Shown here one piece after another: positions 1,566-64,000 of a stretch of DNA of 64,000 bases (within the stretch, counting starts at the first letter, position 1; every line of letters starts with the position of its first letter). Both the position numbers and the translations under genes were made by a program. The DNA is from Octopus vulgaris (Eukaryota), in contig OX597815.1 of the NCBI GenBank assembly GCA_951406725.2, positions 17,484,001 through 17,548,000 on the forward strand, written 5' to 3'. A model generated the notes under the pieces. That model had not been told where the DNA came from and ran no database searches. It saw only the letters and a list, made by a program, of their open reading frames with translations.

Positions 1566-1654
1566 TACAGTTACTACATATTTTGGAGCAAAAATTCAGA
1601 AAGGAATGCTTGAGATACACTCTATGAGTTTCTCCTCAAGCAAATTACAATTTT

Positions 1655-2482
1655 CATATCTCCTGCGCCACATAAACTCGCAGAGATACGAGTCAACCAT
1701 AGAACGGTGGCTCCCACAGCATTGTTTATTACCTTGTTTTATACAGGCCCATGTACTTTTTCCACTCGTTGCATGTGGGGAGCATCTTTCGTATTAATAA
1801 CCTCAACGCTGTGATTCACAGTTCTATGTCAAAAATTCTAACCATCAATTTCAAGTATGTGAGAATAGGTCCTCTATAAATTACTGAAAATTCTGGTTCC
1901 TGGAAGAATTGACTAACGTATGCATTCCTCTAGTGTGTTGTGATTCCGTCATGGCACCGCATAAAGAAAAAAACATTGGACTCGCGACACCTCCGAAAAC
2001 CTAATGCTCAGGCAGCAAACATTTTTCTGCGGTTGTATTTGCGTCTTGAGAAGACTGTTTGGTCTATCTTAACAACCTTCCTATGTTAGCCTATCTGAAA
2101 CAGGTCCTCCGCAACTATTGTAATCAACAGTTGTACAGTGGATCATCCCCAGTTCTTCAACGCAAAACCGGACTAAAGTCAATCCCTTGACCTATGAGTG
2201 AAAGAGAAAAATCAGTACAGTCCTGAGAGGAAGAGTGCCACCTTCCAACCATGTATCCTTTTTGATAGTAATGACAGTAAATTTTCCCGTGAAGCATCTT
2301 CTTGTTCCTTTTGTGCATAATTTTCTTTTGGTGTCCTTTTGTGCATAATTTTCTTTTATGGATAATATCCTTCTCTTGCAAGTATAGAAACGCATCTTAA
2401 CGGTTTTCAATTTCTCTATCGTATTCGAAAGGTTAATCGAGTTGGCTGCAGTCATACTTCCATTTAGGTTAAAAAGGTCCAT
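1655..2482 (-). pseudogene. Merlin/IS1016-family DDE transposase pseudogene
   Basis: Motifs in order: LQEKDIIHKRKLCTKGH, IKKDTWLEGGTLPLRTVL, VVKIDQTVFSRRKYNR, *VFGGV, ILPGTRIFSNL*RTY, HRTVNHS, HMQRVE, DSYLCEFMWRR; several stops and frameshifts. Confidence 0.9.
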
Positions 2483-3039
2483 GGAAACACAAAGTTCAAA
2501 ATTATGAAAACGAGGTCGACAGGACAGCAACCGAAAATATCAGTTCGTTTCTCATGAATAATAAATATATAAATAAATAAATAAATAAATAAATAAAAAG
2601 GTGAAAATGACGAAAATGTGATAGTGAATGGACTGCAACTAAATATATTCCTTTCTCATAAATCACAGGTAAAAATGATAAAAATGTGGTACAAACGGTC
2701 AGAAAAAAAAAGGCACTTGTCCAAGAAAATAGATAGATAAATACAATACACGTGGTTGGAGTTTTAAGCAGGCTATACCTTGACTTGTCACTATGGAAAC
2801 CAGAACCAATATGTCTGTGGCTTTCGATTGGTTAAAATTACCCAAAATTTGAAAAATTTTAAAGCTATTCAGATTTTATTTATTAATTTATGGCAAAAAT
2901 GAATTTCATTTCCATAATTAGCATTCAAAACTACATCAGTATACTAATTTTGAAAACAACTGGAACGAAATTAAAAGAATTGAAAACTGAGACAGCAACA
3001 GAAAAGATTCCTAATTTCCTATCACTAGCATACCCACCA

Positions 3040-3405
3040 CAATGGCCCAGTGGTTAGGGCAGCGGACTCGCGGTCGTAGGATCGCGGTTTCGATTTCCAG
3101 ACAAGGCGTTGTGAGTGTTTATTGAGCGAAAACACCTAAAGCTCTACGAGGCTCCGGCAGGGGATGGTGGTGATCCCTGCTGTACTCTTTCACCACAACT
3201 TTCTCTCACTCTTACTTCCTGTTTCTGTTGTACCTGTATTTCAAAGGGCCGGCCTTGTCACTCTCTGTGTGACGCTGAATATCCCCGTTAAGGGTACACG
3301 TGTCTGTGGAGTGCTCAGCCACTTACACGTTAATTTCACGAGCAGGCTGTTCCGTTGATCGGGTCAACCGGAACCCTCATCGTCGTAACCGACGGAGTGC
3401 TTCCA
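3040..3405 (+). mobile_element. SINE C (tRNA-derived)
   Basis: A-box TGGCCCAGTGG, B-box-like GTTTCGATT; near-identical to copies at 28028 and 59361. Confidence 0.9.
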
Positions 3406-3477
3406 TTCCATTCCATACCCACCACCAAAAAAAAAATAATAAGCCTTTGAAACTTCCATCAGTCCTTGTTGTCAGTG

Positions 3478-3559
3478 TGCGCATGCGCCATTGTGTTGTG
3501 CACTGAAGAAGATAACCGGTTGTGTTTAGCCTGCCAAAAGAAGCCGCTGCAAGGTAAGG
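3478..3559 (+). promoter_or_regulatory. Possible Pol II promoter / first exon: NRF1-type motif plus splice donor
   Basis: TGCGCATGCGC at 3478-3488 overlapping YY1-like CGCCAT; AAG|GTAAGG at 3553/3554; motif evidence only. Confidence 0.3.
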
Positions 3560-4107
3560 CTTTTCTCTTGGACCCGGTGAGGGTCGTTGTCTGTGCTTAT
3601 ATATTTTACAAATAGGGAATCCTCACTGAATTCAGCATGTTGTTCTACTTGTGTTTCAGTAATATGGTCCATAGTAAATGAAGATTTTTTTCTCATTATA
3701 TGGTGGGCGTATCCTTCAGATACTTTGTTTCTACAACAACATTTACCATTATTGGAAAACTGTATTTCAAGTGTTCACATGAAGTGAAAATTTATTTTTC
3801 TCATTGTGACAAATATAGTTTGGTGACTATCCTTGCCACCGAAAATCGTTCGCCGTTTTTAAATAGTGTGTAATTTACGACTACGTTGGAAAGCTGTATT
3901 CAAGTGGAGCAGTCCAGGTTCGAATTGGAGTACCATAAGGGCTTGGAGTACATGAATGCCCAGAAGATTTTTTTGCTGTGCTTTCTTTTTTTGAACTATT
4001 GTTTTCTTCTTCTATTGTGACTTTTTATTGAACTGTTTATTTTTTTTATTTATTTCTTCTTCCCTTTTGTTTTCTTTTGAATTATCTCTTTCCTTTTTTG
4101 TGAACTA

Positions 4108-4467
4108 TTGCTTTGGACATGGCAAAGAAATACGGATAAGATTGTGTGGGAGATTGTCCCACCGAAGCAGTGGTTAAAGTATATGGAGGAGAGGATGGTG
4201 GGGGTTAGAACTTATTCTAAAGTTCTGGATTCTATCACTGTCTTCCCAAAACCAGTTATAGAAAATGAACTGAAAGTCTATTTGTCCTCTGTGAAATACA
4301 TATCCCGCGGTGTCAAACATGCAACCGTATGGTTGCTGTTCGACTCCCGGGAAAAGGCTCTTAAATGTAAGGGTATTGCTGGCTGTCGATTGGGAAGAGT
4401 CAAAAGCGATTTTGACCCTGTGGACCCCATCGGCCGCAACAGATATGGTTTTTCCAGATTTTTTTAA
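4108..4467 (+). pseudogene. Possible L1/Tx1-type ORF1 N-terminal fragment
   Basis: Non-repetitive 119-aa ORF with RRM-like pattern (RTYSKVLDSITVFPK..ISRGVKHATVWLLFDSREKA); family assignment is inference. Confidence 0.4.
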
Positions 4468-4597
4468 ATGGCTGACTGCAGTTATCCGGTGATACTTGAA
4501 GGACGTCCCCCCCCCCCCCAGTGTCACTCGTGCCTGCAGCCAAGATAAGTTAAGTATTACTGTCTGGGAGATTTTCTTATGGTAGTGAAAGACTAGT

Positions 4598-4778
4598 TTT
4601 AACTGCTATTTCTAAAATTTCGGTGTGTGGTGGAGCAAATTTTGCTGAACCCTAATTATAATTATGCTCATAATTATAGAATTTTTGTATAAGTTTACCG
4701 ATAATTGTTCTTTTAACATACCGAACTACTTGGTAAACTTATTAATTATCAATTAATTAATTAATTTTACCCTTTATT
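4598..4778 (+). repeat. Family F repeat (PLE pseudo-LTR-like 3' end)
   Basis: Shares CTGCTATTTCTAAA..GGT(G/A)TGTGGT..TTGCTGAACCCTA..CTTGGT(A/G)AA with 15767 and 63637 copies; ends at (TA)n. Confidence 0.7.
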
Positions 4779-4791
4779 TTATATATATATA

Positions 4792-5194
4792 TGTGTGGTA
4801 AGTAGCTTGCTAACCAGCCACATAGTTCCGGGTTCAGTCCCACTGCGTGGCATCTTGGGCAAGTGTCTTCTGCTATAGCCCCGGGCCGACCAATGCCTTG
4901 TGAGTGGATTTGGTAGACGGAAACTGAAAGAAGCCTGTCGTATATATGTATATATGTATTTATGTGTGTATGTGTGTGTATGTTTGTGTGTCTGTGTTTG
5001 TCCTCTTAGCATTGCTTGACAACCGATGCTGGTGTGTTTACGTCCCCGTCACTTAGCGGTTCGGCAAAAGAGACCGATAGAATAAGTACTGGGCTTACAA
5101 AGAATAAGTCCCGGGGTCGATTTGCTCGACTAAAGGCGGTGCTCCAGCATGGCCGCAGTCAAATGACTGAAACAAGTAAAAGAGTAAAAGAGTA

Positions 5195-5195
<1 letters not shown>
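4792..5195 (+). mobile_element. SINE B (tRNA head, CORE-like segment, internal microsatellite)
   Basis: B-box GGTTCAGTCCC, CTTGGGCAAGTGTCTT segment, (TA/TG)n middle, tail GGCGGTGCTCCAGCATGGCC..(GTAAAAGA)n. Confidence 0.9.
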
Positions 5196-5226
<31 letters not shown>

Positions 5227-5722
5227 AATTGTATAATTACTACTTCTGAGGTTCCCCTAGCTATGAGACAAATTTGACCAGGATTTTATCTACTCTATTC
5301 CCTAATTTCAAATGTTTATTCGCATATACAGCAACCCCAGTTGCTAACCCTCTTTCAGCCTATCGTACTTCGACACAGAAAAAATTCTCAACATTCTGCG
5401 CCAATAAACCACTATTGTTCCTGAAAGTTGTTTTTATACTTTCTACAGACCGCTCGAAGCTTACTAACTTCCTACACTTTGATTCTTTGATCTTAACTTT
5501 ATATACGTGTGTCTATGTGTGTGTGTGTGTGTGTGTGTGTACATATGCGTTTGTGTGTATTTGTTCCCTTGACCGGTGTTGGTGTGTTTATGTCCAGATA
5601 ACTTTGTGATTCGGCAAAAGAGTCGATGGAATCAGTACCAGGCTTAAAGTAAGTATTGGGTTGATTCATTCGACTAAAATTTTTCAAGGTGATGCGCCTA
5701 GTCACTTGAAGCAAGTAAAAGA

Positions 5723-5768
<46 letters not shown>

Positions 5769-5892
5769 AATATTAAAATTACTAAGGCTCTCTAAAGGAG
5801 ATTACGGCAGCGTTACTGGAAATTAATAGTTATCGCCATACTAATATGCCAATCTTATAAATATAAGACTAAAGCTGTCGATGATTAGCTCC

Positions 5893-6063
5893 ATATATAC
5901 GACGGGTTTCTTTCAGTTTCCGTCTACCAAATCCACTCACAAGACATTAATCGGCCCGGGGCTATAGTAGAAGACACTTGCCCAAGATGCCACGCAGTGG
6001 GACTGAACCCGGAGCCATGTGGTTGGTAAACAAGCTACTTACCACACAGCCACTCCTGCGCCT
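5893..6063 (-). mobile_element. SINE B 5' half
   Basis: Reverse complement of SINE B head up to the internal microsatellite. Confidence 0.88.
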
Positions 6064-6193
6064 GTTTACGGATGATCAACCCTATTCGTTTACCGGGAAG
6101 GAAACAATCGATTATATCCACAACAGTGTTGACTGAGATGTATTTTATCGGACTCAGAAAGATCAAAGTTAACATCAACTTCGGAGAAAATTT

Positions 6194-6471
6194 GGATCTT
6201 TTCGGTTTGAACGGCAGTTTTTAACATAATTTCTAGGTAACGTCTATTGAGGTGAAAACATTCTGTGCCGTATGAATATGTCCCTCGTTTAAGAAACAGA
6301 TTGGATTTATTTACATTTGTGAAGAAAAAAAGATACCTTTCCCCCCACCCCTAACCCTAACTAACCCTAAAACAGATTGAAATGCAATAGATCGATACTA
6401 GGGTCATAATTATGGGTGACAATTTCAAATGACACCGCTAGAAAAAACTGCCGTTCAAACCGAAACGATCC
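6194..6471. mobile_element. Merlin-type MITE family D, internally deleted
   Basis: TIR GGATCTTTTCGGTTTGAACGGCAG; perfect 8-bp TSD GAAAATTT (6186-6193, 6472-6479); sits inside a decayed SINE A. Confidence 0.9.
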
Positions 6472-7010
6472 GAAAATTTGAACTCAAACCAGAAAGAACT
6501 GTAACTAAATACAGCAAAGTATTTTATCGAGCATTCTAATGATTCAACCAATCTACTACCCTTAAAGGATCGATATGTTATGTATATTTACTGATATAAG
6601 TTAACGAATATATCAATCTGATACTGCGTTTGATTCTAATTTCTTGTCACTTCTACGCTAGACAAGGATGCGTCACTCGTCTACGTTAATTGTAACTTAT
6701 TAAATATGCAATATGTCCAGCCACGTTACTTTATTGCCTTCGTTAGCTTGTTTACATCAGCTAAATCACGGCTTTAGGAACTTTGCGATAAGCACTTGGA
6801 AAATATTCTAGAAATACATTTTGATTACGAAAGCTTAAACGGCTTATAAAGCTGTTAATGTAATTTAAGAGGATATATGGAAAAGTATGGTAAACACAAG
6901 ACACAGATCAAACGTGTGTGTGTAAATACATATATAACTTTTATCCCGCAATGCCTGTTGCTTGCATCCAGCAATCCCTCATTCCACATGTGCTCTCTCA
7001 TTTCGATATC

Positions 7011-8117
7011 TATTTATTTACTACCCACAAGGGGGCTAAACACAGAGGAGACAAACAAGGACAGACACACGGATTAAGTCGATTACATCGACCCCAGTGC
7101 ATAACTGGTACTTAATTTATCGACCCCGAAAGGATGAAAGGCAAAGTCGACCTCGGCGGAATTTGAACTCAGAACGTAACGGCAGACGAAATACCTATTT
7201 CTTTACTACCCATAAGGGGCTAAACACAGAGGGGACAAACAAGGACAGACACACGGATTAAGTCGATTACATCGACCCCAGTGCGTAACTGGTACTTTAT
7301 TTATCGACCCCGAAAGGATGAAAGGCAAAGTCGATCTCGGCGGAATTTTCGACTCAGAACGTAACGGCAGACGAAATACCTATTTCTTTACTACCCACAA
7401 GGGGCTAAACACAGAGGGAACAAACAAGGACACACACGGATTAAGTCGATTACATCGATCCCAGTGCGTAACCCGAAAGGATGAATGGCAAAGTCGACCT
7501 CGGCGGAATTTGAACTCAGAACGTAACGGCAGACGAAATACCTATTTCTTTACTACCCACAAGGGGCTAAACACAGAGGGGACAAACAAGGACAGACACA
7601 CGGATTAAGTCGATTACATCGACCCCAGTGCGTAGCTGGTACTTAATTTATCGACCCCGAAATGATGAAAGGCAAAGTCGACCTCGGCGGAATTTGAACT
7701 CAGAACGTAACGGCAGACGAAATACCTATTTCTTTACTACCCACAAGGGGCTAAACACAGAGGGGACAAACAAGGACAGACACACGGATTAAGTCGATTA
7801 CATCGACCTCAGTGCGTAACTGGTACTTAATTTATCGACCCCGAAAGGATGAAAGGCATAGTCGACCTCGGCGGAATTTGAACTCAGAACGTAACAGCAG
7901 ACGAAATACCTATTTCTTTACTACCCACAAGGGGCTAAACACAGAGGGGACAAACAAGGACAGACACACGGATTAAGTCGATTACATCGACCTCAGTGCG
8001 TAACTGGTACTTAATTTATCGACCCCGAAAGGATGAAAGGCATAGTCGACCTCGGCGGAATTTGAACTCAGAACGTAACGGCAGACTAAATACGGCTACG
8101 CATTTTGCCCGGCGTAT
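7011..8117 (-). mobile_element. SINE A hexamer
   Basis: Units start at 7011, 7196, 7381, 7543, 7727, 7911 (about 184 bp, one internally deleted); 17-bp TSD TCTCTCATTTCGATATC at 6994-7010 and 8118-8134. Confidence 0.95.
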
Positions 8118-9244
8118 TCTCTCATTTCGATATCATCCACGCTTCTCCATCCACCATGTTCCTCTCACTTCGACTACTTTTGTTGAAGGTCTTATGACCG
8201 AACCGATTTCTTTCAATTCAGTTTTACTGATATCTGTTATATCAATTGTCTGTTTATCTGTTCAATATCGTCTTTACAAATGAAGTAACTGTCTCCTGTC
8301 GTATCCTTTTTGTTGTCTTGAAACACCTCAGTTATCATATATAGTTTTTTCGTTTTGTTTTCGATCTGTGTCTAATAATTTTAACCTTGGCAATTGTATT
8401 GATTTGATTCAGTTCTATGCGAATATTCGCAGGAGTTTATCAAACTCGAATAACATACTTGATCTATGATCCCATATTGTAATCACATGTTTGTGTATGT
8501 ATTTGTGTATATCTATACTCTAATAGAGAAAGCTACTTATTAATTAGCTATGTAACAATTACTAAAAGTACTAAAAGAAAGGAATTATTAAAGGGTTGAC
8601 TGTCTGGAAATATCTTTTATAAATTCATGTTCGTAGAAATTTCCTATAATTTCGATTTCTCAAGTTTCTTGAATTTTTTTAACTCCAATTTCTCGCAAAT
8701 TTAAATATTCATTGCATTCACTGCGGAGCATTCCATCCTCATTTGTAATCTCCCACTTTCTCTTTTAAGTTTTCATTCACTATTTGGAAAACCGACAGAT
8801 TATTCTATTAATGTATACATAATTTATTATTTATTGCATGGAAAGTTTCAAAATACCCGTATAATTTTTGAACGCGTGGTAGCTGTGAGAAGAGTCTAGA
8901 AAGCTGGTTAATTACTATTAGAAGACGAGGAGAAAGAAAAGTTACCGACAAGTACTTGAAGCTTGCACCTCATTTACGGTTTCCAAACACTCTGTAGCAC
9001 TAAACCAACAATATATACACAAGCAAGTCGCACGAGCGACTTCAACAGTGACGCACTCGCGCACACACACATAGATGCACATACACACAAATGAAAGGCA
9101 ATGAATGTGCGTGTGGGGGCTGCTGTTCACAGACAAAGCTTCGTGCTGCATTACTTTTGCGAAGTTTTGTCAGTGAGCAGATCGCGGTTCCAAAGCGAAG
9201 AAAATATTTTGCCACAAATGAAATTTTAATGTTGAAGTGAAACT

Positions 9245-9464
9245 GATACTACTTGAATACAGAGGTCACTTAACGGTTCTACTTAAATACAGAGGTACTA
9301 CTTAAATATAGGGGTTACGTACAAAACGTTTTAAATGTACGCTGTGTGGATGTGTAATGACACCCTAACCATAACTAACCCTAAAGACTATCTCTAAAAC
9401 TAACCTTCCCTCCCCTTCATATCGTTACATAGATGCATCGGGACATCTGTATTTAAGTAGTGCC
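9245..9464. mobile_element. Second Merlin-type MITE
   Basis: TIR GGCACTACTTAAATACAGA-like (left end present in three tandem copies); TSD GTGAAACT (9237-9244) / GTAAAACT (9465-9472); internal CCCTAACC repeats. Confidence 0.7.
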
Positions 9465-12333
9465 GTAAAACTAACGGTTTCTGTGCGTTCCTGGATGGCT
9501 TGCAAAAATTTAAGCTGCAATTGTTTTTGTTTCAGCACACGATCTCAGATCAAGTCACTTGCTATGCAAGTACATCTCAGTAATTCTTTTATAAATCACT
9601 GTGGATAAACGCCAGCAATGAGCTTCTCAGGCACTCCAATATTTTAATTTCTCAACAGAAACAATCGGGAGCAGGGACTGGGATTGCAAGAAATTCATCA
9701 CTTCTCAAATTTTCTTTTTTTATAGCATATAAATGTATTTATGGAGAAAAAATATTGAAAAGCATCAATTCATGCGAGAGTGATAAAGAAACGAGGGAGG
9801 TTCTTTTTGAATATGCTAGAAACAACAGCCAAATCGCCCTTAAATATTACCAATTTAAAAAAAAATACCGAAAATGCTCTTCCCAAGGTTTTGAAGTGCA
9901 AAAAGAATTAGCCAAAATAGGTCCTGAGTGGGATGATGAGGAAGGGGGTGTAAAAAGTTTACAAAACTTTTTTCATACAAAGAAGCCCCTACCCCTTCAT
10001 TTCGAAGGCTGTAGATTAAAAAAAAAATGAAGAAAATCCCTGAAGACATTTTCCCCACAAATTTTCTTATAATCGTAATCTATGCTGTTTGAAAGGAATT
10101 TGTATAACAAACATTTTAAAGGTTGCAAATTCACGTCTAGTGAATGAACTATGCATTGTGCATAGGTGCAACGCTAAGCTGTCGATAGCTTAGACTTTCT
10201 GGCTACTAGAAGATACACAATATTTTCGTAATAAGTGGAAGCACTATATTATTGATGAGTGTTACACTGGCATTAAACTTCTTCCATGGATAAGATTGTT
10301 GAGGATCGGTTACACGAAGACGTAGGTACTCACATAAATGAAATGAAATGAACAATAATTCCTCATCGGCTGAGCTGGCATGTGACCCATTAATGTCAAT
10401 CTATATCCAAATAAATAGACAGAACAGAGAGGTGAGATGGTAAAGCTATATAATAAAATAAAACAGCTAAAGAGATGCGATTTGTTATGGCAATAATTAA
10501 GTATAAAAGCTGATGTAGACTACTATAAAATTCAACGAGTGATGATCACTTCTAGAATGCCAGGATCTTTGAAACAATAAGTATTCAGTGTCGAATGAGA
10601 TTCAATGTTGCCATGCATTATACTCTTCCAGAAAGGAGTGTAGAAGAACAGTTTCTGATACCAAGACTCAAGTATTCACTTCTGTTGCAGACACAACCAG
10701 ACACTGCAGATTTACAGAGACAGACTGGTCAGTGGACCCACAAAAGATAACATGTCACCCTGATAATACGAGCGTGTTGCTTTTATTTCGTACAGCTTCG
10801 CAGTTTTATCTGTTTCATCAGTGCTTGTCTGGGACGCCATAACAGCAAACACCAGCAAAGAACAATTCATAGTAATAATTTCCTACGTCACACAACTATA
10901 CTTTCATTGACTAAACCTTACCTTTACCAGAAACATGATCTCTATCCTATATTTTGCCTCCAATTACTAACGGACATTTTTGGAAAGTGCAACAATTTAT
11001 TGTTGCTATGGGCGGATACAATACGAGTAGATCCGAAAAGGCCAAATATCAAGTAAACAAAGTACGAATGTAGTATAGCATATTCTTCGTTCCGAGCTAA
11101 AAGCTAAAATTTCAGCTATTTTATACGTACGTAGAGAATTAAAACTAATATATTAAAAATACCAATTGATAAAACAATTAAAGCATGAGAAAGGAGATTG
11201 GGCAACCGATGAGGATTGACAATTCACATCGGGTATTCTTGACCTTTTACAAAAATGTTAGACATTAGCGAATTCTTTTGCACTTTCTGTCTCTGAAGTA
11301 TCTTTTTTTTTATATCGTCAATGTTCGTGATATTTATTCAAACTGAAACTGTATACCTCTGATAAATTGTCGATTGCAATTTCGTATTCTAAACAATAGA
11401 TTTGAATCGTATATCTGTTAATCGATCCACATGAGAATTTCATTGGTGCTCAAATAATTTTTCTTACGTGTATGGTAGCAGATGTCGAAAGAGGAGTTTG
11501 AATTTGCATGAGTCAGTATCAGCAAGAGAAAATTTTTCTTCTTACACACGGAAATTATTTTAGTGGAGAAGTAAAGAGAAGAGTGGATCTTCCTACGTCT
11601 AATCATGCAAGGCATTAACGACAAAAGTGAAGTGGATTTTGACTGAGAATCGAAACGGAATGGCTTTCTAAGAACTCTACGCAACACTTCGTATATTACA
11701 GTCGGAATATTGATTTCTTATATTAGCACACATGGTCCATAAATTTGTTTGAGAAGAGTTTAGTCGGTAGAATAATAATATTATTACAAAATTATTGGGT
11801 TTTTTTTTTTTTGATCCCCTCATCTCAACTCTTGAAAATCAACCCAAGTGGGATTTTAATTTAGACCAGAAATAACTAAATGATGCAAGTTGCTTCTGTC
11901 CGGAGCTCTAGCTCTGCAAGTTCTATCATTCACTTATTTTGATTGCCATTAGAATTATTACACTGCCAAAGGAGAAAAAAAAAACACTTTTGAGTGTACA
12001 ATAAATATCACATTGCAAAGACCACTTCTAGTAAGGGCACAAAGATACATTAGAGGGAATGGCGCAGTTGATTATATCTACTCCAATGATTTTACTGACC
12101 GTAATTTTATCGACGTTGGGAAATAGATGTCAAAGTTGACTTTGATCGGATTTGAACGCTCAGTATTATACTCACAAGCTTAATTGGTCATTCCTCGCTA
12201 TATTTTCCAGTGCAATATATTTCTTATTCAGGACAACCGAGCTATGTTACTTTCATTGACTCCTCCAAATGTCACACTCCGAGATCCCTTTGTGTTTGAT
12301 ATCCTAGTTACTCTACCGCCCTTCCAATCTTAA

Positions 12334-12554
12334 CCCTTTCGTTACTGTATTTATTTTGAGATGCTCTGTGTTTCTTCCAATTATTTTAAATATAAGAAAG
12401 AATTTAGTAAAATAACATCGTTATCATTGAGCTAGTGTTAGGAGCATAAATTGTGACTAAAATTTGGTGGAAATTTTGAATTCAAAACTTATGAAAACAA
12501 GACATTTATACTAAAGAGCCAGAGCCGGTTTCAGCCGGGTTGGTAACAAAAGGG
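12334..12554. mobile_element. piggyBac-type MITE
   Basis: TTAA|CCCTTTCGTTAC ... GTAACAAAAGGG; right TTAA not preserved. Confidence 0.65.
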
Positions 12555-12599
12555 AAGCATCTGTTCAATGCTTCATGTATTATGAAATAGTTTCAACAA

Positions 12600-13260
12600 A
12601 GCTCTTGCAATTAAGTGCTTATCTGCTTTTATCATTTCTCCTGTATCCAGAAGCCTTCCTGAGCTTTATTTTTAACAGCTCGATGACCCTTCTTACTACT
12701 TCAAAAGGTATTTCATGGACAGCCACTTCCAGCTCCTCTTGATCGTTTCTCCTATTAAACGTATTTTTCATGTCTGTATTAAAATGTTCTCTCCATTTCT
12801 TTACTTGTTTATACCACGTGTTATTAGTTCCCTCATCAATAAAGAACTGTGGTAGTCTTTTTTGATCTCTTTGCTTTGCCTGTAATCCCATTTATTATTT
12901 CATAAGCTTTTCTAATTCCTCTACTGTCTCCTGCATCGAGGAATTTATCTGCTTCATCGGCTTTCATTTTCATGAATCTTCTTTTATCGCTTCTTCAACA
13001 ACTTTTTCACCTTTCTATTGAGACTCCAGCATTTAGCTATACAATTTTAAATCCATTCGATTCCCTCTGCAAATTTAAGAATTTTATTTTATTTTACTTC
13101 TTTCGTGTCACAATAACCTCCCATCTTTCATCCGCGATCTATTTCGTTCATTTTATTTTTCCTTAACCCCCACAAATACCTTTTTGTTAGTTTCCCCGCA
13201 TTCTACTTTATTACATTCTTCCATAAGCCATTGATGTTTATATCTTCATCTATAGATTTG
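12600..13260 (-). pseudogene. Decayed LINE ORF2 endonuclease-RT linker (RTE/CR1-like)
   Basis: KWREHFN..EVVRRVIELLK..KASG in ORF 12619..12891. Confidence 0.5.
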
Positions 13261-13668
13261 TGCATTGCAAATCGTTTTAGATATTCAATTACAAACTCGT
13301 GGATATAAATCCGAGTACATTTGTCTTCCACACACACGTGTGTGTATATGTATGCGTACGTGTGTAGTGTGTGTACGCGTATGCGTGTATATGCATGTAG
13401 TGTGTGTCTGCGAGTAGTACAGTTTGATGATTTGCAGCATTTCGTGTTCTACGGCATTGCTGGTAAGTTATGGTGGGAGCTACTTTAAGTTTATTGTTTT
13501 GGGGAAAAGGTTCTCGGTGATTGATATAAAGTTTGGGTAAGTGAACTACTGCATATAGAAAAGTGTAGAACGATGTGCGTGTGGCTGGCTGGCTGGCTAT
13601 CTCCATATATGTGTACATAAGTACGCACACTCATGTATAACTCAAGCCAAATGCAAGGCGACTGAGTG

Positions 13669-13711
13669 ACTTCGAATCCGGAGTTTCGCCAATACTGGCA
13701 TATTCAGAAGT
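13669..13711 (-). ncRNA. Degenerate minimal hammerhead ribozyme motif
   Basis: ACTTC-TGAATA-T-GCCA gtat TGGC-GAAA-CTCCGGA-TTC-GAAGT; stems intact but core mutated. Confidence 0.45.
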
Positions 13712-13927
13712 GCGAAAACTTTGAAGTCACAACCACTGTGAAATTCATAGCATTTTTGAAACACGTCTAGTGAATCCTTTGTTGCTTATTGTCATCTGGA
13801 TCTGTGAACTTTACTATAAAGTGCAACACATAGACGCACACTCACACAACTCATGTGTATATAATTGTGTGTATCAATATATATATATATATATATAGAA
13901 GATTCTAAGTGTGTGTGAGTATATACA

Positions 13928-14157
13928 TGGCGTGCTGGCAGAAACGTTAGCACGCCGGGTGAAATGCGTAGCCGTATTTCGTCTGCCGTTACGTTCTGAG
14001 TTCAAATTCCGCCGAGGTCGACTTTGCCTTTCATCCTTTCGGGGGGCGATAAATTAAGTACCAGTTACGCACTGGGGTCGATCTAATCAACTTAATCCGT
14101 TTGTCTCTCCTTGTTTGTCCCCTCTGTGTTTAGCCCCTTGTGGGTAGTAAAGAAATA
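13928..14157 (+). mobile_element. SINE A monomer
   Basis: Head to tail match with family A. Confidence 0.92.
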
Positions 14158-15766
14158 TATATATACGTATGAACAAATACACATCGTGCATGAATGTATA
14201 ATGCTAACACTTGTGTGAGTAAATATATACAGTTGATTCATTATGCATGCATGTGTGTTTGTATGAATATATTTAAATTTGTGCCAAGAAATATATATGT
14301 AGTGCAGTATCTAGATGCATCAATAGTTATGGAAACGAAGGTCTTCGTATCATGGTAATGTAGAAAGAAAAGAGATGAAAGAATTTGTGATGCAACGAAA
14401 GAAACTATGTAATTTGAATAAAAGTAGTTTAGCTGTAATCAACTAAGATATTAACCACAACTGACCTTTCAGTTCTTATGAGCTGCACATTGAAATTAAA
14501 ATGGACAGCTTTGCTAAGATCTTAGACGCCACCAGCTTTGGTAAACAAACTGTCAATAGAAATAATAGCGGAAAAGTAAAATAAAAATGTGATAAGTTAC
14601 AGAATCGGTTTCTCTTTCAGCTAAGTAATCTTTCGAGACAAAACAAACCTGAAAGCTGAAAAGTTAATAAACATTGCTCTCCTCTTTGTTCCTATCGTTT
14701 CTGCTAGAGTATTCGTCGTTTGCTAATGACGACTTCTTAAACATTGCCTTGTGAATTACTTATTGTCGACAGAAACCTGGCATGAAATAAATCTCATCGG
14801 GGAATATCTTATTAAAAATTCCGTGGAAGATCTCAAAAGTCTTTCTCTTCGACGGTTACAAATTAAAACATGAATAATTTTCCATCAGTTGGAACGAAAA
14901 GATTTTCAGACAACTTAATATGATATGAAATGGCTGCAAATTATCTCTAAACTTTTTTTAAATTTGGTTTTACTTCAAAATTAGTAATGTTGTTGTATAG
15001 TTTCGCTAATGTTTCTATACTCGGACACATCAGCATCACTTATATTTCTATAATACAATGCAATCAATTTTGTGACGAAAAAAATATTTCGCGAAATCTG
15101 CCGCAAACCGTTTCTGCATCAAACAAATGCCTTGATGACGGCATTGAAACTCTGTAACTTCCAACATATGATTCTTGGTATAGCTGTAGGCGAGGGTATT
15201 TTCCATTAACCAAACAATCTAAACCTATTAATGGTACATGACTTTTGCACGGTATATGATTAATGTATTGATTTCTAGGACAAAATAAATGCCGTACATT
15301 TTATAAAGGAAGTGAATAATGTTTATGCCTTTCTCTATACTATTTTGAAGTGGGTAAAATGAGGTGGTTCCGAGCGGCAATCGAAATCACTTCACGGACT
15401 GGGGCTTGTTTCTTGCTGCACAGATAATTAACATTGATTTATTGCTTTCGTTTACCTGATTTCTCATTATGACTTCGTTCTCATCAGTAAATAGCTGTTT
15501 GTTTAACCACTTCCCGTTTTTGACGCAATGGACTTCATGTCAAAGAATCTTATTACCACAGTACACCAGTACACACACACACATAAATATATACATATGT
15601 ACATGATATGTACATGTGTGTAAGAATCGAGTTCTCAATCAGTAAAAATAACTTGTTGGATAAGCCACCGTTAAGGTGGAGCTTGGAGTCCTAATGACCT
15701 CAGAGTTTATATATATATTTATATATATATATATATATACATACATACATACATGTGTGTGTGTAT

Positions 15767-15970
15767 ATTACTTTATTATATAATTAGGGTTCAGCCCCCC
15801 CCCCAAAAAAAAAAAATTCGGTGTGTGGTAAAGCAATTTATTATTTTTTTTTTGCTGAACCCTAATTATATAAAGTAATGTTTAAATTTACTGTAAATGG
15901 TCCTTTTACATACTGAACACTGCTTGGTAAAATTATTTATTACTAATTAAGTTTACCCTTATTATTATTG
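15767..15970 (+). repeat. Family F repeat with inverted 5' arm
   Basis: Inverted repeat 15767-15795 / 15854-15879; TA/TG microsatellites on both sides. Confidence 0.75.
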
Positions 15971-16869
15971 ACTATATATATATATATATATATGTATGTA
16001 TATAAACAACGTTATACGTTTCTCTAACGATATTATGGTGATATAAAGTGATAGGCTCGTCTAAGCAACGTTTATTCAAATAAGTATTCTTTAATAAATT
16101 CTGAAGAAAATGCATATTAGAAGGAAATACTAGTGTCAGCTTTGACAGTGAATAAGAAAAAAAATGTGAGGAAACCGAAGAGAAAACTCCAGTACATTAC
16201 ATCTGTTGAATTCACGATTTTACTCGCTTAAACTTTTGACAAGGCTTGTCAAATATATAAATAAGTATAAATAAGTAGATAAATAAAAGAAATGTTAATA
16301 TCATTATTGTAGAAAGCAACGAGAGCAGGTCACCTTGATATAATATATTCGAACAGTTTTCAATGGAATTTTAATCGATTTTCTGAAACTGCGTCTCTTG
16401 TCCGGACAGTATTGACATTTGGCACTTAAGCTAAAAAACAATCGAAGACTAAACTAGATCCTATATTTGGAGTGACATATAACATGTAAGCTAAGGAGTG
16501 TACAATACCGTGTGTAAGTCAATAAAAACCATCGAACACACATTTATAATTCTCTGAATATAACCATCCTTACTGAAGACTTAATTGTCCAACACTCTAT
16601 CTTCTGGCACTTGCTGTTTAAAACTTTTGAAATACATGACAGGACCACTTATACGAAACACTACTTAAATGACAACGACGTAGATGAGGCTTTCCACACA
16701 TTAGCAGATTACGCACCAAGGGCGATTACGAATTTATAGATCGAGTTTCTTGAAAAGTGTGTGGTTATGGAGAATTTCATAGCAAAACTACACGTCTACC
16801 TAATTGTAAAATAATAATTCAAATATTATATTTCGATTTTGGAATCATGTTATATGTATATACACATAA

Positions 16870-26234: not shown

Positions 26235-27250
26235 ATAAATCTCAGAGCGAGTTATAAACAGTAGCAGCAACACATTGTGACGTATATCTGCCATTTGAAT
26301 ATTCAAATGGGAAATATACGTATATATATATATATATATATATAAACCGTTCCATATTTTCATCACTTTATCTCATCATCTGAGAGAGTCCCATTATAAA
26401 AACAAATTGAATTTTTGCATGGGAGGGGGGGGAAACACTCTCATCAATTGATTCATGACGCTTAAGTCATTTGAGCTGTCTGCACCTCGTACATCTAAAA
26501 AAAAAAAAACAGAAACAAAATCACTCTCATTTTATGGAGGAGAAGAAAATAGCATTAAAATCAGTATATTTGTTTTTATCGTTTTCTTATTTTTCAGGTA
26601 GCAATAAATAAATATCTTTATTCGCATTTGTTGTCGGTTTTATATTTTAGTACCTTCTTTGAAGGTTTAAAGAAGCCAGAAAAACGTTGTAGATTTTGTC
26701 TTACTTGATGTTGTTTTATCCGGATTTATCTGCAATATCTCATTTCCGCATAGTACTGTTAAATTTAGTGCTGATATAAACAGAAAATGTTATGTTGAAG
26801 TAAAAGTAACTGCTGTTGTAATGTTGGTATTATTATTAGATTTTAGCTCAGTTTTTTCTCACTCGCCAGCTTCTAAAATATTCTATCAACTTCACCATTT
26901 CTCTTTATTTCTTTGTAATTATTGGATTGTCTCTAAATTTTTTTATTACATTAACTTACTTTTATTCTCTTAATTCTGTTTGTTAAGACATTAATTAATT
27001 TTTTGAAAACTTTGTCACAAATATATAATTTTAATTCATTTATATATTTTTAATGACATTTTCATAATTACAATTACCTTTTTCAAACTTAACTACGTTT
27101 AAAATTATGAGTTGTAACAAACAGATCATGTCATTTTTTCTGAGGAGATTCGAGTCCTAAAATCTTCATGCATATTATGTTGTATCCTGAACAATCTAAT
27201 ATCGCCCCACGATCCAGTGAAGAATGATCTACGTTAGTCATGAGCAACTT

Positions 27251-31998: not shown

Positions 31999-34900
31999 GG
32001 ATGAAAGGATGAAAGGCAAAGTCGACCTCGGCGGAATTTGAACTCAGAACGTAGCGGCAGACGATATGCCGCTAAGCATTTCGTCCGGCGTGTTAACGAT
32101 TCTGCCAGCGCACCGCCTATATGATTAGTAACAATCGTAATTAACACGCTATTTAAATGAAAGAAGGAATGAAATTTTGCAGGTTTATCATTCACTATTA
32201 GACGCATCATCATTCGCAGGGTAGGTGAAAAAAATTTGATGAATCAATTTTAGTGCAGTACTGATATTTATGTTTTCGAAACTTGTGGCTCAGGGCCTAG
32301 AGAGATGAGAAATAAATATTTAAAGAATCATACGTAATACAATTCTAAGTTTAATGCCGTCACGAGTTACTCCATCAAATCTTACTGTTATTTGTGGAAA
32401 GAGGATTATTTTTCTCTATAAAACAAACAAGCACAAGCGAGAAAGAATTGTGAGGAGTTTATTATAAACATGAAATTTCAGTAATTATTTTTAAGAATTT
32501 GAATTATTTGTTAACAGCTAGGAAATAGACAATAGGATTATTTTCTCTTCGGAATTTTCCTACGTTAGTAATAACTATTCAGTATAGGCATTATAACAGT
32601 TAATGATGCAAGCATTAAATAAATCTTTAAAAATAAATCTTAGTGAGATGGCATGAGTAGGTGTGTAGATTAAATGACAAGAAATGCTTGTAAAAAGCGT
32701 CTTTCTGTTGAGTCATACGAACAAGAAAATTCAAAGCAGTAATTTCTATAGCAAAGCGAAATACATTTTCGCTTTCGTTTTTGCATAATGCCTGAGAAAT
32801 ATTTATAGCATACCGAAAAAGTCATAATCTTTAGCATCCCTTCAAACACAACAAATGATTTCAAATCTTCTGTCTAGTCTCCAAATATCTTGGAATTCTT
32901 TTTGCAATTTCAAGCAGACATCTTAGGCCGATCCCAGTAAAACAGAAGTGATTGAACAACACGAGGTAACTCGGTGACATAAGAATAGCAGAATTACATA
33001 AGTACTGTGCATGCATGCATGCATACGGACATGCACACATCTGCATATACATATCTATATGTGTGTATGATTGCACGCTCACTAAGTGAAACTGCATGTA
33101 TGTTCGCGTAGTGTGTGTGTGTGTTTCTGTTTGCTTACCTGTCTCTCTCGATATATGGATTCTTAGACTATTTATATAGCTTGAGAAGACAAACCGATCA
33201 AGTAAAAATACAGACAGTATATTGAAGAGAGAGGGAGCGAATCAAAATTATTATTTTTTTTTTTTTTCGTTTTAAAAGATAAATATTCAAAAACATCTTC
33301 AAAAACTCAGTAAATAAAAAGGAATTTCTCTTTCCTCAACTCTGTGATTTCCTTTCGCTAAAGAACCCTTTATATGTCGAAGCTGCTAATAAATATTTCT
33401 GAAAAATTACTTTTTATTCTGCTCATCAAACTCTTCCGATATCGTTTTGTGTTATACAAAGCTGGCTTTCCTATTTTCAGCAAGATACCAATTTAGATGC
33501 AAGCAATATTTTCTTCTTGTTGGCAATGGCCAAAATAGAACAATTTTCTTGTACTGTTCCTGTATCTGTTTCTAAGAACAAGACGAATGTAAGCTGTTAG
33601 AATGAAAGAGAGCGGTTTATAGATTTTCCGAGTTGTATTATTTTATAGTTCCCTAATCACACAAATTTAACCAATGGTCTATTTTGAACTCACCACGGAC
33701 CAGTTTAGAGCTTATCACCCGCCTGTCTATTATCACATTGGTGTTTAGCCTCAGGTCAGATTTGAGCAAAGGCGTTGCTGTCGTGACCATACAGCTTTTT
33801 ATTTTAATAGCGTATGAGTTCAGGAATATTTGGCTGCTATTTCTCGCATGTAGAGCTACTACACAGTGTTTCCCTTGTTGGTGTTGTTGTCTCTCGATTC
33901 CGATCTTGCAGCAGCAGGAGTTCCAAAATGGATACTTACACAGATACGCACGCACGCACACACACACACACACACAAACACGCGCGTGCTTGGCATAAGG
34001 ATTTATAAACTTTGAGAGAACGTGAAATAATAGTTGTTTTGGAACAGCGGATCTCGAAATAAGAAGCTGTAAATAGTAGCGTGTAAGTATAGAGATAAAA
34101 AATATCCAGGGATAGAAAAAGTTGAAAGCTACCCACGGCTATTTTTAATCTCCCCTGGATTAAATATGCTAGTACTAACTTAACTTCTTTTTTATCATAT
34201 GGATGGCGTCTCTGGGTTTTATTCTGTACAAAAATCTAGTTTTTACACAAATTAATGTATGTTTACTTAGTGATTTTCTCATCCCTACTTCATTTCACTT
34301 AGTACGCTGAGGACTACTTTTTCTGATGAGGTCGTAAGTAGACAGAAACATGCCTTTCCAGAGTTGTCTTCTTAGCTTGTGAGTAAAAAATGAAAGAATA
34401 TTTTTTTTTATTTTCCACACATTTCTTTCTTTGACTCGTATAATTATGGTATTTTGGCATAAGGTGCTGATTGACTTATACTTCCTCCACTGTTTTGTTG
34501 TTTTTAGAGTTGTTTAGGTTCGGCCTCCTCAAAGCAGGGTCGCTGCTGTCTTCGCGAGGCTGCTGTCACGTAAAGATTCGGAGCGTCTTGAATACAACGA
34601 AGGAATTTTTTCATTACATATTCCAGCTTTGTAAACATTATTTGTTGGTTATTGTAATTTTTCCTGCAAAAGCTAAAACACTGCAATTGTGCCTTTCAAA
34701 GGAAATTCACAAATTTAGAATTTAATAATAGCTGTGCCGAACATTTCCGTCATATAAAAAAATAATGACAGCGCTTACTATTTTAATTTCACGTGATTGT
34801 GGAATAACCACTGTGGAATAACCACTGTGATTCTCTCTCTCAAATAACGGGAGTGTGTCATTTTTTTATTACCGTATTTACCTTCATACTATCCGATTTC

Positions 34901-50699: not shown

Positions 50700-51600
50700 C
50701 ATACGAAGAAGTCTGGCATCATCCAAAGAAAGAAAAAAAAAAAGAAATAGCATGGAAAGGGAAAAATGTACAAAGATAGGTACAGAAGACCGGTGATTAT
50801 GGATGCAAAGGTGTGACTTGAAGATAGAAACAGAAGCGGCACAAGAACAATCATTGAGGACAAACTAGATGAAGTGTAGAGTTAATAAAATTGAGAGCAA
50901 CAAACGCAGAATGTGTGGTGAAAGGGATGAAAAGTGTGGCATATTGTTAATGGATGCCCGAAATTGGCACAACGGGAATACAAAAGGTGACATGACAATG
51001 TAGCAAGAATAGGATATTTGTAGAAATTATAGCCCAGAAAGATTAAAGGTGTGGTAGGACCAAATCTCAGAAAGAGTTTCTGAGAATGAGGATTGCAAAA
51101 TTCTGTGAGAGGCAATGATTCAGTGTGACCATCAGATTAAATATCGAAAATCTGACATTATTGTAGTGAACAGAAAAGTAAACAAATGCCTGATAATTAA
51201 TATAGCATGTTTAAGTGATGACAACATTGAAGGGGACGAAGAAAAACCAAGGAACAACTATGATGAATTAAAGTGGAAAATACTTTAATTCATCATAGTT
51301 GTTGATGACTTGAAGGTTGTGTGCAGGCTATGTGCAATGAAGAAAGTGGACGTAATACCCATAGTGATTGGTGCGTTTGGAAGTATCAGTACCCAATAAC
51401 CAAAGTGGCTCGAGAAGATTGGAACAAACATAAAAATAGAACACCAACGAAAGTCATTATTGTTTGGAACTGCAAGAGTTCTCTGTAGGACTCTTGAAGC
51501 ATGATCAGTAAACAAGTGTCACCTTAGTCTGCTGGCTTTCAACAACTGACACTTTTTTATAATGTTCAGCAAAATAAAGCTGACAGTTTTTCATGATGGA
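50700..51600 (+). pseudogene. R4/Dong-like RLE non-LTR retrotransposon 3' portion
   Basis: DLKIETEAAQEQSLRTN, knuckle MCGERDE..WHIVNGCPKLAQREYKR*HDNVAR, RLE IQCDHQIKYRKSDIIVV..CLIINIAC, VIPIVIGAFG, KSLLFGTARVLCRTLEA*. Confidence 0.9.
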
Positions 51601-60710: not shown

Positions 60711-60878
60711 GGTGTGAGAGGATGGTTAAATCATAGTTTAGATGTGATTGAAAATAGAGAGTGAGGTGGAGGAAAGAAAATAGATGCAAGATATGCAGGG
60801 ATTTTGGAGTTATAGATCCATTTTTTAGGCAGAATGGTATATATGTAAGATTCCAATGTCTTATGAGTAAAGTCCAAA

Positions 60879-61007
60879 AGTCCAACAGAGTTTAAAATGG
60901 GTCCTTCCAAATATAGAGTTTATACACAATGTTTCATAAGGCATTGGAATCTTACATTGTGTATAAACTCTATATTTGGAAGGATCCATTTTAATCTCTG
61001 TTGGACT
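60879..61007. repeat. Inverted repeat, 54-bp arms
   Basis: 60879-60932 vs 60954-61007; spacer is itself the inverse of 60843-60866. Confidence 0.92.
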
Positions 61008-62666
61008 AATATTGTGAAAAATTATATGGTTATGGACAGGGTGTCTAATTTTGGCATATTTGGCATTAGAAATTTTTTCGTTTGCCCTTATTTATAAGTT
61101 GTTTATAAATTTAACCTTTAAAGGTATTTTTTAATATGCTGGCCATTGATAAAATTTTTTTTTGTTCGAAAAAAAAAAATTTTATCCTACATTAAATATA
61201 TATATATAATCATATATATCTAGTTGTTTCAAAGGACTGTGGCCATGCTGGGGTAGTAACACATGAGTACCTTGTGTTAAATTTAGTAACAGAATAACCT
61301 TAAATTAATTTAAATAATCAAATTCCTTGAAATTAAAGCAAATAAATAAATATGCAATATTTCCTCTTTGAGGCATCACCTTCTCGGTTGATTAGATTAA
61401 CCCCTATAATTATTTTACCAGCTATGGAAGAGTGAAAGTGAACAAGGTTTTAAATTAAAATGAAAAAAACACATGGTAACCAAATACACATGGTAACCAA
61501 ATACACATGGTATCTTATCTGATACTCTAACAATTCTGTCATTCAGCCATTCATATACATATGAAACAACACAAAAACAAAGAATGTAGATAAATACACT
61601 TTTTAATATTATCAAAAAAAGTGTTGGATTGGACATAGAATAAAAAAGAGCAACAATGGTTTCATAAAATCTGTTGGTTTGTCTTTGGGAGTGCAAACAA
61701 GTAATAATAATAGTAATAATAATAATAATAATCATAATAATAATAATGATAATGGTACATACATACATACATACATACAAAATAAATTGTTTAATGTATG
61801 TTTCCAGATTTTGTAGGCTTGTTTCAGAGAGATTTGAGCTCAAGCTTAATATTTTGAAGACATAGAGACTTGGACTGTGATCAAAGGAAGTCATAATTTA
61901 TATAAGAAAGCAATTTCAAATGACAAGTATGAAAGAAACAGTTTTAAGATCAAATTCAACTACTGTCATCAAACGAATATTGCTACAATCATGTACAAGA
62001 ATTATGCTAACAATAACAAAACAATAACAACAGTGATGATATGGGTATCACCTGGTATTTATAACAAGTAGTGTCTATGTATATATATGTGGGTGTGAAT
62101 ATTTTAGTTGAAATAAAATATTAAAATATTAGCAAATGGTTATCATAATGGCTATTTCTAGGATTACACAAAAAGTATAATTGAGTGGCTCCTATGTTGG
62201 ATCTAATTGAAAATAGTTCTGTAGTAAAGTATATGGAACAAATAAATAAGGTTTATTATTATATAATATATAAAGGAGTTAAATAAAACAAATAGAAAAT
62301 TCAATGTTTAATTGTAAAGGAGAAACGAAAACTGTATGAATACAAGGGTGGTAGAGTGTGGGGGAAGGGCTGAGGAATGCTCAAAGCTAACAAGTTGTAG
62401 AAGAGAATCAAAACATTAACAGAACAGAGTTTGGTCTGATAGAAAAGAGAACAGAATAAAGTGAGAGAAGAAAGCCTAACGGGAAGGGTCAATGAAACTG
62501 ATTCAGTAAAAAGAACGAAGGGCATTGATAGATGTATAGCTGGGGAGTGATATGTATATATTTTATATGCATTTGTATATTCTGATAATTTATGCAACAG
62601 TGAAGCTTAAATACATACATATATATATATATACTTTATTTAAAGCAGCAGAAAATTCAACAAAAT

Positions 62667-62704
62667 CTGTTACTCTGAGTTTCTCGTTGCCGTTCATCAG
62701 ACAG
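62667..62704 (-). ncRNA. Minimal type I hammerhead ribozyme motif
   Basis: CTGT-CTGATGA-ACG gcaa CGA-GAAA-CTCAGAG-TA-ACAG. Confidence 0.78.
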
Positions 62705-62714
62705 CTAGCAAAAA

Positions 62715-62752
62715 CTGTCTGATGAACGGCAACGAGAAACTCCGAGTAAAAG
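62715..62752 (+). ncRNA. Minimal type I hammerhead ribozyme motif (mirror copy)
   Basis: CTGT-CTGATGA-ACG gcaa CGA-GAAA-CTCCGAG-TA-AAAG; one stem I mismatch. Confidence 0.72.
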
Positions 62753-62999
62753 ATTTTGTTGAATTTTCTGCTGCTTTAAATAAAGCATATAACTCTACCA
62801 CTGGTATTTGAGTACTCTTTTTTTCCACCTTGTTTCACATTTATGTGTTTACTCCAGTACATATATATATATATATATACTTGGTGTATTTACACCTATT
62901 TGTCTCCAGTGAAAAGTTTTCTCCGTTACAAAATATAATGAATGGCTTTCTTATGTGTTTGAATATGCCTCAAGCATACTTGAACTGGTAACAAATTTG

Positions 63000-63320
63000 T
63001 ATATACATACATATATATATGTGTGTGTGTGTGTATGTATGTATGTGTGTGTATATATATGTATGTATGTGTGTATATATATGTATGTATGTGTGTATAT
63101 ATATGTATGTGTGTATATATATTTATGTATGTATGTGTATATATATATATATATGTATGTATGTGTGTATATATATGTATGTATGTATGTGTGTATATAT
63201 ATGTATGTTTGTATGTGTGTATATATATGTATGTATGTATGTGTGTATATATGTATGTGTGTATATATATATATATGTGTATGTATGTGTGTATATATAC
63301 ATGTGTGTGTGCGTGTATGA
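63000..63320. repeat. (TA)n/(TG)n/(TATG)n compound microsatellite
   Basis: Direct reading. Confidence 0.97.
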
Positions 63321-63636
63321 TATTCTTGGTTACAAAACTAAGAAGACCACAATTTAATAGTGCACTGCACTCAATACTTGATAAGATGTAGAGTATAAAA
63401 GAGCATCAATATTTTTTATTTGAAATTTACCTTACAGATGGTCTCGTCTGTTGTAAAAAAAAAATCTATCAGGTGTAGAACACTGTGTCCTCCTTCTGAT
63501 GAAGTTCTAAGAGTGAACCAAAACAAATTAGCTCACCTGTAAGGTGAATACGCAAATAAAATATCTGATTGCATATAAATATATGTGCGAGTGAGTGTAT
63601 GTTTGTGTATATGTGTGTATATGTGCATATATATAT

Positions 63637-63902
63637 ATACTTTATAATAGAGTTCAGCAAAGATTTGCTTTACCACATACCGAAGTTTAGAAATAGCAGC
63701 CAAAGAACCTTAGCTATTTTAAATAGCTAAGATTCTTTGGCTGCTATTTCTAAACTTCCGTATGTGGTAAAGCAAATCTTTGCTGAACCCTATTATAAAG
63801 TATTACTTTAATTTAATGGTCCTTTTTCATGCCGAATTCTACTTGGTGAAATTATTGATTACTTCTTAATTAATTAATTAATTTTTCCCTTTGTTATTGT
63901 TG
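63637..63902 (+). repeat. Family F repeat with 167-bp palindrome
   Basis: 83-bp arms 63637-63719 / 63721-63803, 3 mismatches, (TA)n on both sides. Confidence 0.92.
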
Positions 63903-64000
63903 GTATATATATATTCTCTTGTAGGCTTGATGCAGTACACTTTAACAGATAATTCTGTCTGTGTGTCCAGAGTAACATTCCACTCCTGTACCTGCATTGC

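Follow-up and report, generated by a model that had tools for sequence, protein, structure and literature searches.

Penelope-Like Elements and Their Hammerhead Ribozymes

Insertions of Penelope-like elements (PLEs) have been described as carrying an inverted, 5'-truncated copy of the element, a tail of 30-40 bp at one end, and a (TA)n target (PMC8557442). Such runs are the listed target of 26 of the 27 Hydra-clade families (PMC8557442), but as (TA)n targeting is common to Naiad and other clades, it is not diagnostic of this clade. The tail is defined by two start sites of the reverse transcriptase (RT), and cleavage by the hammerhead was reported to be unnecessary in vitro (PMC11167929). With the Penelope element of Adineta vaga, head-to-head arms offset by 15 bp, with palindromes at the junction, were read as products of self-priming (Arkhipova et al., 2013, PMC3846280).

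The hammerheads of metazoan PLEs were found to be inactive as monomers and weak as dimers, and dual hammerheads on opposite strands, approximately 100-700 bp apart, have already been published (Cervera and de la Pena, 2014, PMC4209133). Penelope-13_HM, which has an inverted 5'-truncated copy, carries a hammerhead on both strands (PMC8557442). Among the hammerheads of the Hydra clade, 15 of 25 are unpaired at positions 10.1/11.1 (14 with U-U and one with U-C) and none presents A-A (PMC8557442). Stem II often comprises only two pairs, and hammerheads with U-U at 10.1/11.1 may retain activity, performing better than those with other mispairs (PMC3088659). The role of the PLE hammerheads is treated as open in the literature (PMC8557442, PMC11167929).

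Organization of the Palindrome

A palindrome with a hammerhead core on each strand occupies 62634-62785 of the window, i.e., of the whole 64-kb stretch of Octopus vulgaris DNA that was analyzed (Table 1). Its two arms, each of 71 bp and separated by a 10-nt spacer, differ at arm positions 29 (62676/62743) and 36 (62669/62750), and they can be extended to 77 bp at the cost of a third mismatch. These dimensions, as recorded in the initial annotation of the locus, were borne out by alignment of the arms; when 61901-63000 was resampled 60 times under an order-1 Markov model, the longest chance arm reached 18 bp. The components of the locus are ordered as (TA)n, inverted tail-less arm, direct arm, tail, and (TA)n. 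While the left (TA)n run does abut its arm as had been noted, the right run begins only after a tail that ends at 62860 and is 69-75 nt long, depending on where between 62785 and 62791 the tail-less end is placed. The accompanying claim that the inversion lies at the 5' edge of stem I applies to the inverted arm only, the direct copy having retained 10 further nucleotides (62705-62714). Contigs of other copies of the family align from 62705 and continue upstream; the spacer thus belongs to the element, which gives the junction an offset of 10 nt. Immediately beyond the right (TA)n run, a different and lower-copy repeat begins (62888-62990), with a depth of approximately 1,000-15,000 in the three DNA-type sequencing runs.

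Table 1. Components of the palindromic insertion, with positions numbered from the first letter of the window.
Feature	Positions	Strand	Basis or remark
Left (TA)n run, likely insertion target	62620..62633	.	Sequence; (TA)n is the target in 26/27 Hydra-clade families
Left arm: inverted, 5'-truncated, tail-less copy of the element 3' end	62634..62704	-	Comparison of arms; family contigs ending at the mirror point
Minimal type I hammerhead motif, left arm	62667..62704	-	Descriptor, folding, by-eye match to Hydra-2_aMil
Spacer of 10 nt: upstream element sequence kept in the direct copy	62705..62714	+	Starts with the 4-nt palindrome CTAG
Right arm: direct, 5'-truncated copy of the element 3' end	62715..62785	+	Carries AATAAA at 62779-62784
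Second hammerhead motif, right arm	62715..62752	+	Own descriptor; predicted cleavage after 62748
One-sided 3' extension (tail), on the direct arm only	62786..62860	+	High family depth up to 62851
Right (TA)n run	62861..62879	.	Sequence

The non-coding hallmarks of endonuclease-containing (EN+) PLEs are present at this locus, namely a head-to-head inverted, 5'-truncated copy and a tail confined to one end, albeit longer than the 30-40 bp described, and these make membership in the EN+ PLEs likely. The insertion into (TA)n and the presence of a Hydra-type hammerhead near the 3' end are features of the Hydra clade, to which the family probably belongs, judging from a short non-coding motif compared by eye. 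As with the inverted pseudo-LTRs of A. vaga, the arms are head-to-head and offset, one of them carries a tail, and a short palindrome occurs at the junction; unlike those structures, there is no open reading frame (ORF) between the repeats and no target duplication is visible in the (TA)n (PMC3846280).

Hammerhead Motifs on Both Strands

Reading outward from the center, each strand presents one side of stem I, CUGAUGA, a 10-nt segment, GAA, a palindromic stem III, A17, and the other side of stem I. Stem I is of 4 bp and the palindromic stem III has a single central base, while the 10-nt segment forms a 2-bp stem II closed by a GCAA loop, between an A at 10.1 and an A at 11.1 in both arms. On the - strand, the CUGAUGA core is located at 62700-62694 and cleavage is predicted after 62671. 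A descriptor of our own, composed after the motif had been seen, found the type I hammerhead features (core CUGANGA...GAA, A15.1-U16.1, H17, and three helices) at these two sites only within the window, and returned three matches in 300 resamples of 64 kb. The pair 10.1-11.1 at the base of stem II, which is usually G-C, is replaced by A-A.

The Rfam models did not recover these motifs: no hammerhead family occurred among the best 150 of 153 matches to the window (E up to 1), nor among the 33 matches to 62560-62900 (E up to 10). The core of CUGAUGA, stem II, GAAA, and stem III that had been proposed for both strands is borne out by the descriptor and not by covariance models. The A-A mismatch noted earlier where stem II begins is present in both arms. 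None of the microRNA matches returned by Rfam reached the gathering score, and they are attributable to the hairpin or to microsatellites. Seven loose CUGANGA..GAAA matches elsewhere in the window failed the descriptor. At 34323-34360, a loose hammerhead-like core comprises a 3-bp hairpin and an A before GAAA; its stems I and III fail, and it may be due to chance.

If stem-loop II is set aside, the motif on the - strand is identical to that of Hydra-2_aMil at 27 of 28 positions, covering stem I, the core, stem III, and the cleavage triplet, as compared by eye (PMC8557442). By the same means, the stem III of the locus was recognized in 5 of 25 Hydra-clade families, and the distance from stem I to the 3' end is 146 nt, vs. 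approximately 130 nt in that clade. Together with the layout, the match to Hydra-2_aMil supports the initial proposal of a PLE that carries a minimal hammerhead and inserted along with a truncated copy in inverted orientation. Unlike the Hydra-clade elements described, the locus has A-A at 10.1/11.1, only two further pairs in stem II, a longer tail, and no ORF that was found. The motif also differs from that of Hydra-1_oBim, the one octopus member listed, and the family is not Hydra-1_oBim. A short stem I, a palindromic stem III, AU-rich flanks, and dispersed truncated copies are shared with the minimal hammerheads of metazoan PLEs (PMC4209133), which, unlike the locus, have a conserved G10.1-C11.1 and a long stem II; furthermore, the two cores are here only 18 nt apart.

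Variation among the copies of the family, as seen in the sequencing runs introduced below, bears on the state of the hammerhead. Stem I of the + strand is broken (three of four pairs) by an A at 62750 that is private to this copy; C makes up 94% of the depth at this position in X4 and at least approximately 99% in the other three runs. At 11.1 (62735), right-arm depth only, U accounts for 82, 15, 25, and 61% in runs X1, X3, X8, and X4, respectively, and A for 5, 74, 53, and 31%. At the mirror position on the deeper left arm, the variant falls below 5% in X3, X8, and X4, all T>A sites there being accounted for by other variants listed; this value is not extended to X1, of which two T>A variants lie outside those listed. 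The A-A at 10.1/11.1 is thus probably the majority state of the family and not damage to this copy, and we infer that a subfamily has A-U at these positions. Other family variants among those listed affect N7, U4, loop III, and the N of the GNRA loop; the remaining core positions are unaffected by the variants listed, beyond which there are 12 more. With U4 (62720/62699), C is read in 16-69% of the pooled family depth, tracking U at 11.1 across the runs. This covariation of frequencies, together with the variation at N7 and in the GNRA loop, suggests the existence of subfamilies. By analogy with the metazoan motifs studied previously, self-cleavage activity of this hammerhead family is probably low.

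The Repeat Family and the Origin of the Palindrome

Contigs of four of 24 sequencing runs (X1, X3, X8, and X4, from organisms A, B, C, and A, respectively) were aligned to 62300-62990 at 80% likeness. Peak depth over the element relative to unique flank was 52,990 (X1), 114,571 (X3), 35,157 (X8), and 1,660 (X4); as summed contig depth is not copy number, these values serve only to establish that the family is very abundant. The palindrome is one copy of this family, which, as seen from the depth and the varied joints in organisms A, B, and C, is dispersed, multi-copy, and 5'-truncated. Two 3' ends are found within the family, one tail-less at 62791 and one tailed to 62851: in each of X1, X3, and X8, 36-38 contigs leave the reference at 62791, the mirror point, and enter a TA run, and the high family depth persists through the tail to 62851. 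Reads stop at both TA runs and no joint among those listed spans the element; a target duplication or an empty site is hence not visible. An exact search with a 23-nt query gave no match in metagenome and viral contigs, the Craig 2021 supplement, or the Bonar 2026 supplement.

With these data, the locus, one copy of an abundant family, is likely a dead, doubly truncated PLE insertion, probably of the Hydra clade, in which the usual head-to-head inversion happened to include the 3' hammerhead and the hairpin predicted for any transcript would prevent cleavage. In this respect the locus is ordinary, such by-products being already known for PLEs. According to what has been published on these elements, their own GIY-YIG endonuclease/RT, acting in trans, would nick a (TA)n run, and reverse transcription could then start at two sites of the RNA 3' region to provide one end with a tail and one without. 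Both copies would stop after approximately 70-155 nt and be linked through their 5' ends, possibly because the CTAG palindrome that immediately precedes stem I folded back. In a transcript of either strand, the antisense arm would be made first and capture the sense arm, and with the cores unable to dimerize in cis, no self-cleavage would be expected. If located within a transcript, the locus may serve as a passive double-stranded RNA (dsRNA) substrate for ADAR.

That the family is instead a short non-autonomous element of approximately 170-230 nt, SINE-like or hairpin MITE-like, mobilized as such and without a long form, appears improbable. The very high abundance would be accommodated by such an element, as would the loose ends upstream of 62705, with their short median length of 16-21 letters in three runs and their modest agreement of 0.54-0.73; their length, however, is limited by that of the contigs, and the motif is that of PLE 3' regions. 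Moreover, the varying junctions and the one-sided tail are unlike the terminal inverted repeats of DNA transposons, and a MITE or hairpin DNA transposon was rejected on the same grounds, the 15 different junctions described below and the tail being at odds with symmetric terminal inverted repeats. A short single-arm unit mobilized by a PLE would be compatible with a PLE origin of the insertion too. The locus shares with the non-LTR retrozymes a non-coding nature and a PLE-related type I hammerhead, but those are same-strand tandem repeats and this is a single inverted pair (bioRxiv 10.64898/2026.07.22.740005); identity as a retrozyme was rejected, the two motifs of the window lying on opposite strands and not in tandem units of the same strand.

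Slightly less probable still is an inversion that followed the insertion and was unrelated to the mechanism of the element, with template switching at the level of DNA, or fold-back repair, beside a TA hairpin. While palindromes in which no PLE hallmark was found do occur in the window (60879-61007 and 51253-51303), the inverted arm stops at the tail-less end that is common to the 36-38 contigs per run, and a second repeat family repeats this arm stop at two loci. This second family has no hammerhead and yet the same layout of inverted tail-less arm, direct arm, tail of approximately 100 nt, and TA run, at 63637-63905 and 15770-15972; the offsets are 1 and 58 nt, and the inverted arm again stops before the tail. 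Formation of the palindrome is thus independent of the ribozyme. The second family is possibly another PLE family. No inverted arm was detected by scan with a third copy (4603-4780), and a 128-aa frame at 4081-4464, in a longer copy of this family, had no Pfam match and no homolog.

Predicted Folding of Transcripts

The initial annotation had proposed that a transcript of either strand could form a long hairpin, and prediction agrees with it: the hairpin of the whole locus is calculated at -121.5 kcal/mol for the + strand and -130.5 kcal/mol for the - strand. When the hammerhead helices are enforced in the same RNAs, the values become -53.6 and -61.1 kcal/mol, respectively, such that the hairpin is favored over the ribozyme fold by approximately 68 kcal/mol. 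Even with single arms, the hammerhead is not the favored fold by prediction. Stem III as a self-duplex is calculated at -7.4 to -7.8 kcal/mol, which fits the dimer model. However, given the head-to-head arms, a transcript of either strand would have its antisense arm ahead of the sense ribozyme, and since the cores are on opposite strands and never in one RNA, the same-strand dimer thought to be needed by such minimal hammerheads would not form. Consequently, "competition," as further suggested for hairpin and ribozyme, is too strong a term for an antisense arm made first and cores that are unable to dimerize. The model predicts that the hairpin, instead of regulating the ribozyme, would prevent it from acting, leaving a silent ribozyme within a tight duplex. 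This predicted duplex holds 51 or 46 adenosines in 152 nt. Counts of A>G were six in X4, guessed to be RNA, vs. six in X3 and five in X8, and they are uninformative, contigs displaying neither strand nor editing.

Inversion Points in Other Copies

At least 15 distinct junctions between left and right arms were found in other copies, none equal to that of the locus. They were drawn from 15 of 32 rows of the joint table and 12 of 14 rows of between-joint letters, leaving out two rows on the opposite strand, one internal skip, and three rows within the neighboring repeat. For 12 of the 15 junctions, one arm reaches element position +7 to +34, and for the other three it reaches or passes the edge of stem I, two of these extending as far as approximately -5 and -23. 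In all 15, the start of the second arm lies between +39 and +78, past the cleavage site. Copies that begin at the cleavage site might give such a range, but it is biased by reference mismatches at +29, +36, and +39, and the mirrored depth has no step at that site. Where given, the shorter side of a junction is only 20-26 letters, and some joints may be alignment effects of the repeat; a junction as symmetric as that of the locus would not be listed as a joint. The joint 62704-62765 was seen in all three DNA-type runs. Another, 62675-62787 of X1, folds back within a few bases of the junction of this locus, near the short palindrome upstream of stem I, and a mild inversion hot spot is possible there.

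The inversion point had been claimed to be special in placing a hammerhead on both strands, a claim contradicted by the 15 junctions that break elsewhere and by the identical layout of the hammerhead-less family. Inversion points scattered at random relative to the ribozyme had been named as evidence against it, and the varied junctions fit this description, with the caveat that symmetric junctions escape listing. In its strong form, the claim holds that selection favored an inversion point leaving a complete hammerhead on each strand, with the hairpin as a switch between cleavage and dsRNA signaling. The exact coincidence of the end of the inverted arm with the 5' edge of stem I, the fold-back of one other junction nearby, and the under-reporting of symmetric junctions are in keeping with it. 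Nevertheless, all of the junctions listed differ and have one arm starting past the cleavage site, the + strand copy has lost a pair of stem I, the gap of approximately 68 kcal/mol leaves no switchable balance, and the layout exists without a ribozyme; selection for such a switch is very unlikely. An artefact of assembly or library preparation (a fold-back chimera) can effectively be dismissed. Although the junction of the locus, masked by family depth, is not separately visible in the four runs, its arms are not identical (2 mismatches in 71 positions) and its ends lack symmetry; furthermore, independent runs contain inversion junctions of this family, 62704-62765 being present in three of them.

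Coding Capacity and Host Context

No match at curated cutoffs and no retroelement domain were returned by Pfam for 150 frames of the window (the 146 longest of 297 complex frames of at least 55 aa, and four chosen), and no RT or endonuclease linked to the family was found within the window. A frame belonging to another repeat of the window matched three of 31 candidate proteins, each of the three being a predicted protein of Octopus vulgaris, in keeping with an octopus as the probable host. Around the palindrome, exon-like stretches with plausible splice acceptors occur on the + strand at 63439-63530, 63930-64000, and 61808-61865. Homology search did not confirm a candidate exon at 63399-63539, and a second at 63882-63998 is likewise unconfirmed, having one weak match to a bacterial S-layer-type protein.

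Octopus dsRNA and Hyper-Editing

Hyper-editing has been tied to dsRNA, with a Penelope element of lizard massively edited and a Harbinger element of frog being palindromic (Porath et al., 2017, PMC5625713). Among the species compared in that study, octopus had the highest hyper-editing signal and the largest share of loci with predicted long dsRNA, and as described there, it was left out of the repeat analysis, such that the repeats responsible were not assigned (PMC5625713). As with the palindromic Harbinger of Xenopus, a self-folding repeat such as the one described here would give tight dsRNA without a second copy, but unlike Harbinger, the palindrome arises at insertion and is absent from the consensus (PMC5625713). 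PLEs constitute 6.83% of the O. vulgaris assembly, in 190 families, and the portions available of that report make no mention of palindromes, ribozymes, or editing (PMC13282606). In the literature searched, neither this octopus family nor a role of PLE palindromes as a source of editing in octopus was found to be described; the family may well be catalogued in Repbase or Dfam, which were outside this search.

It may be speculated, though we consider it rather unlikely in full, that PLE fold-backs of this and the hammerhead-less family left many thousands of nearly perfect hairpins with short loops across the octopus genome, that most of its exceptional long dsRNA and A-to-I hyper-editing stems from them, and that the family amplified hugely with an unpaired and probably crippled hammerhead, showing self-cleavage in vivo to be dispensable for the spread of PLEs. 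Whether such palindromes supply substrates for hyper-editing in octopus is a lead worth keeping. In addition, the family is present in high copy and varies naturally at 11.1, U4, N7, and loop II, and it thereby offers a ready series for testing whether cleavage matters.

Other Palindromes of the Window

Three palindromes with arms longer than 50 bp occur in the 64 kb. The one at 60879-61007 has arms of 54 bp and a spacer that is the reverse complement of a 24-nt piece upstream of its left arm; the region as a whole (60843-61007) resembles the product of a double template switch and has no further copy in the window. Smaller palindromes, with arms of approximately 20 bp, are located at 51253-51303, 61148-61186, and 26280-26321.
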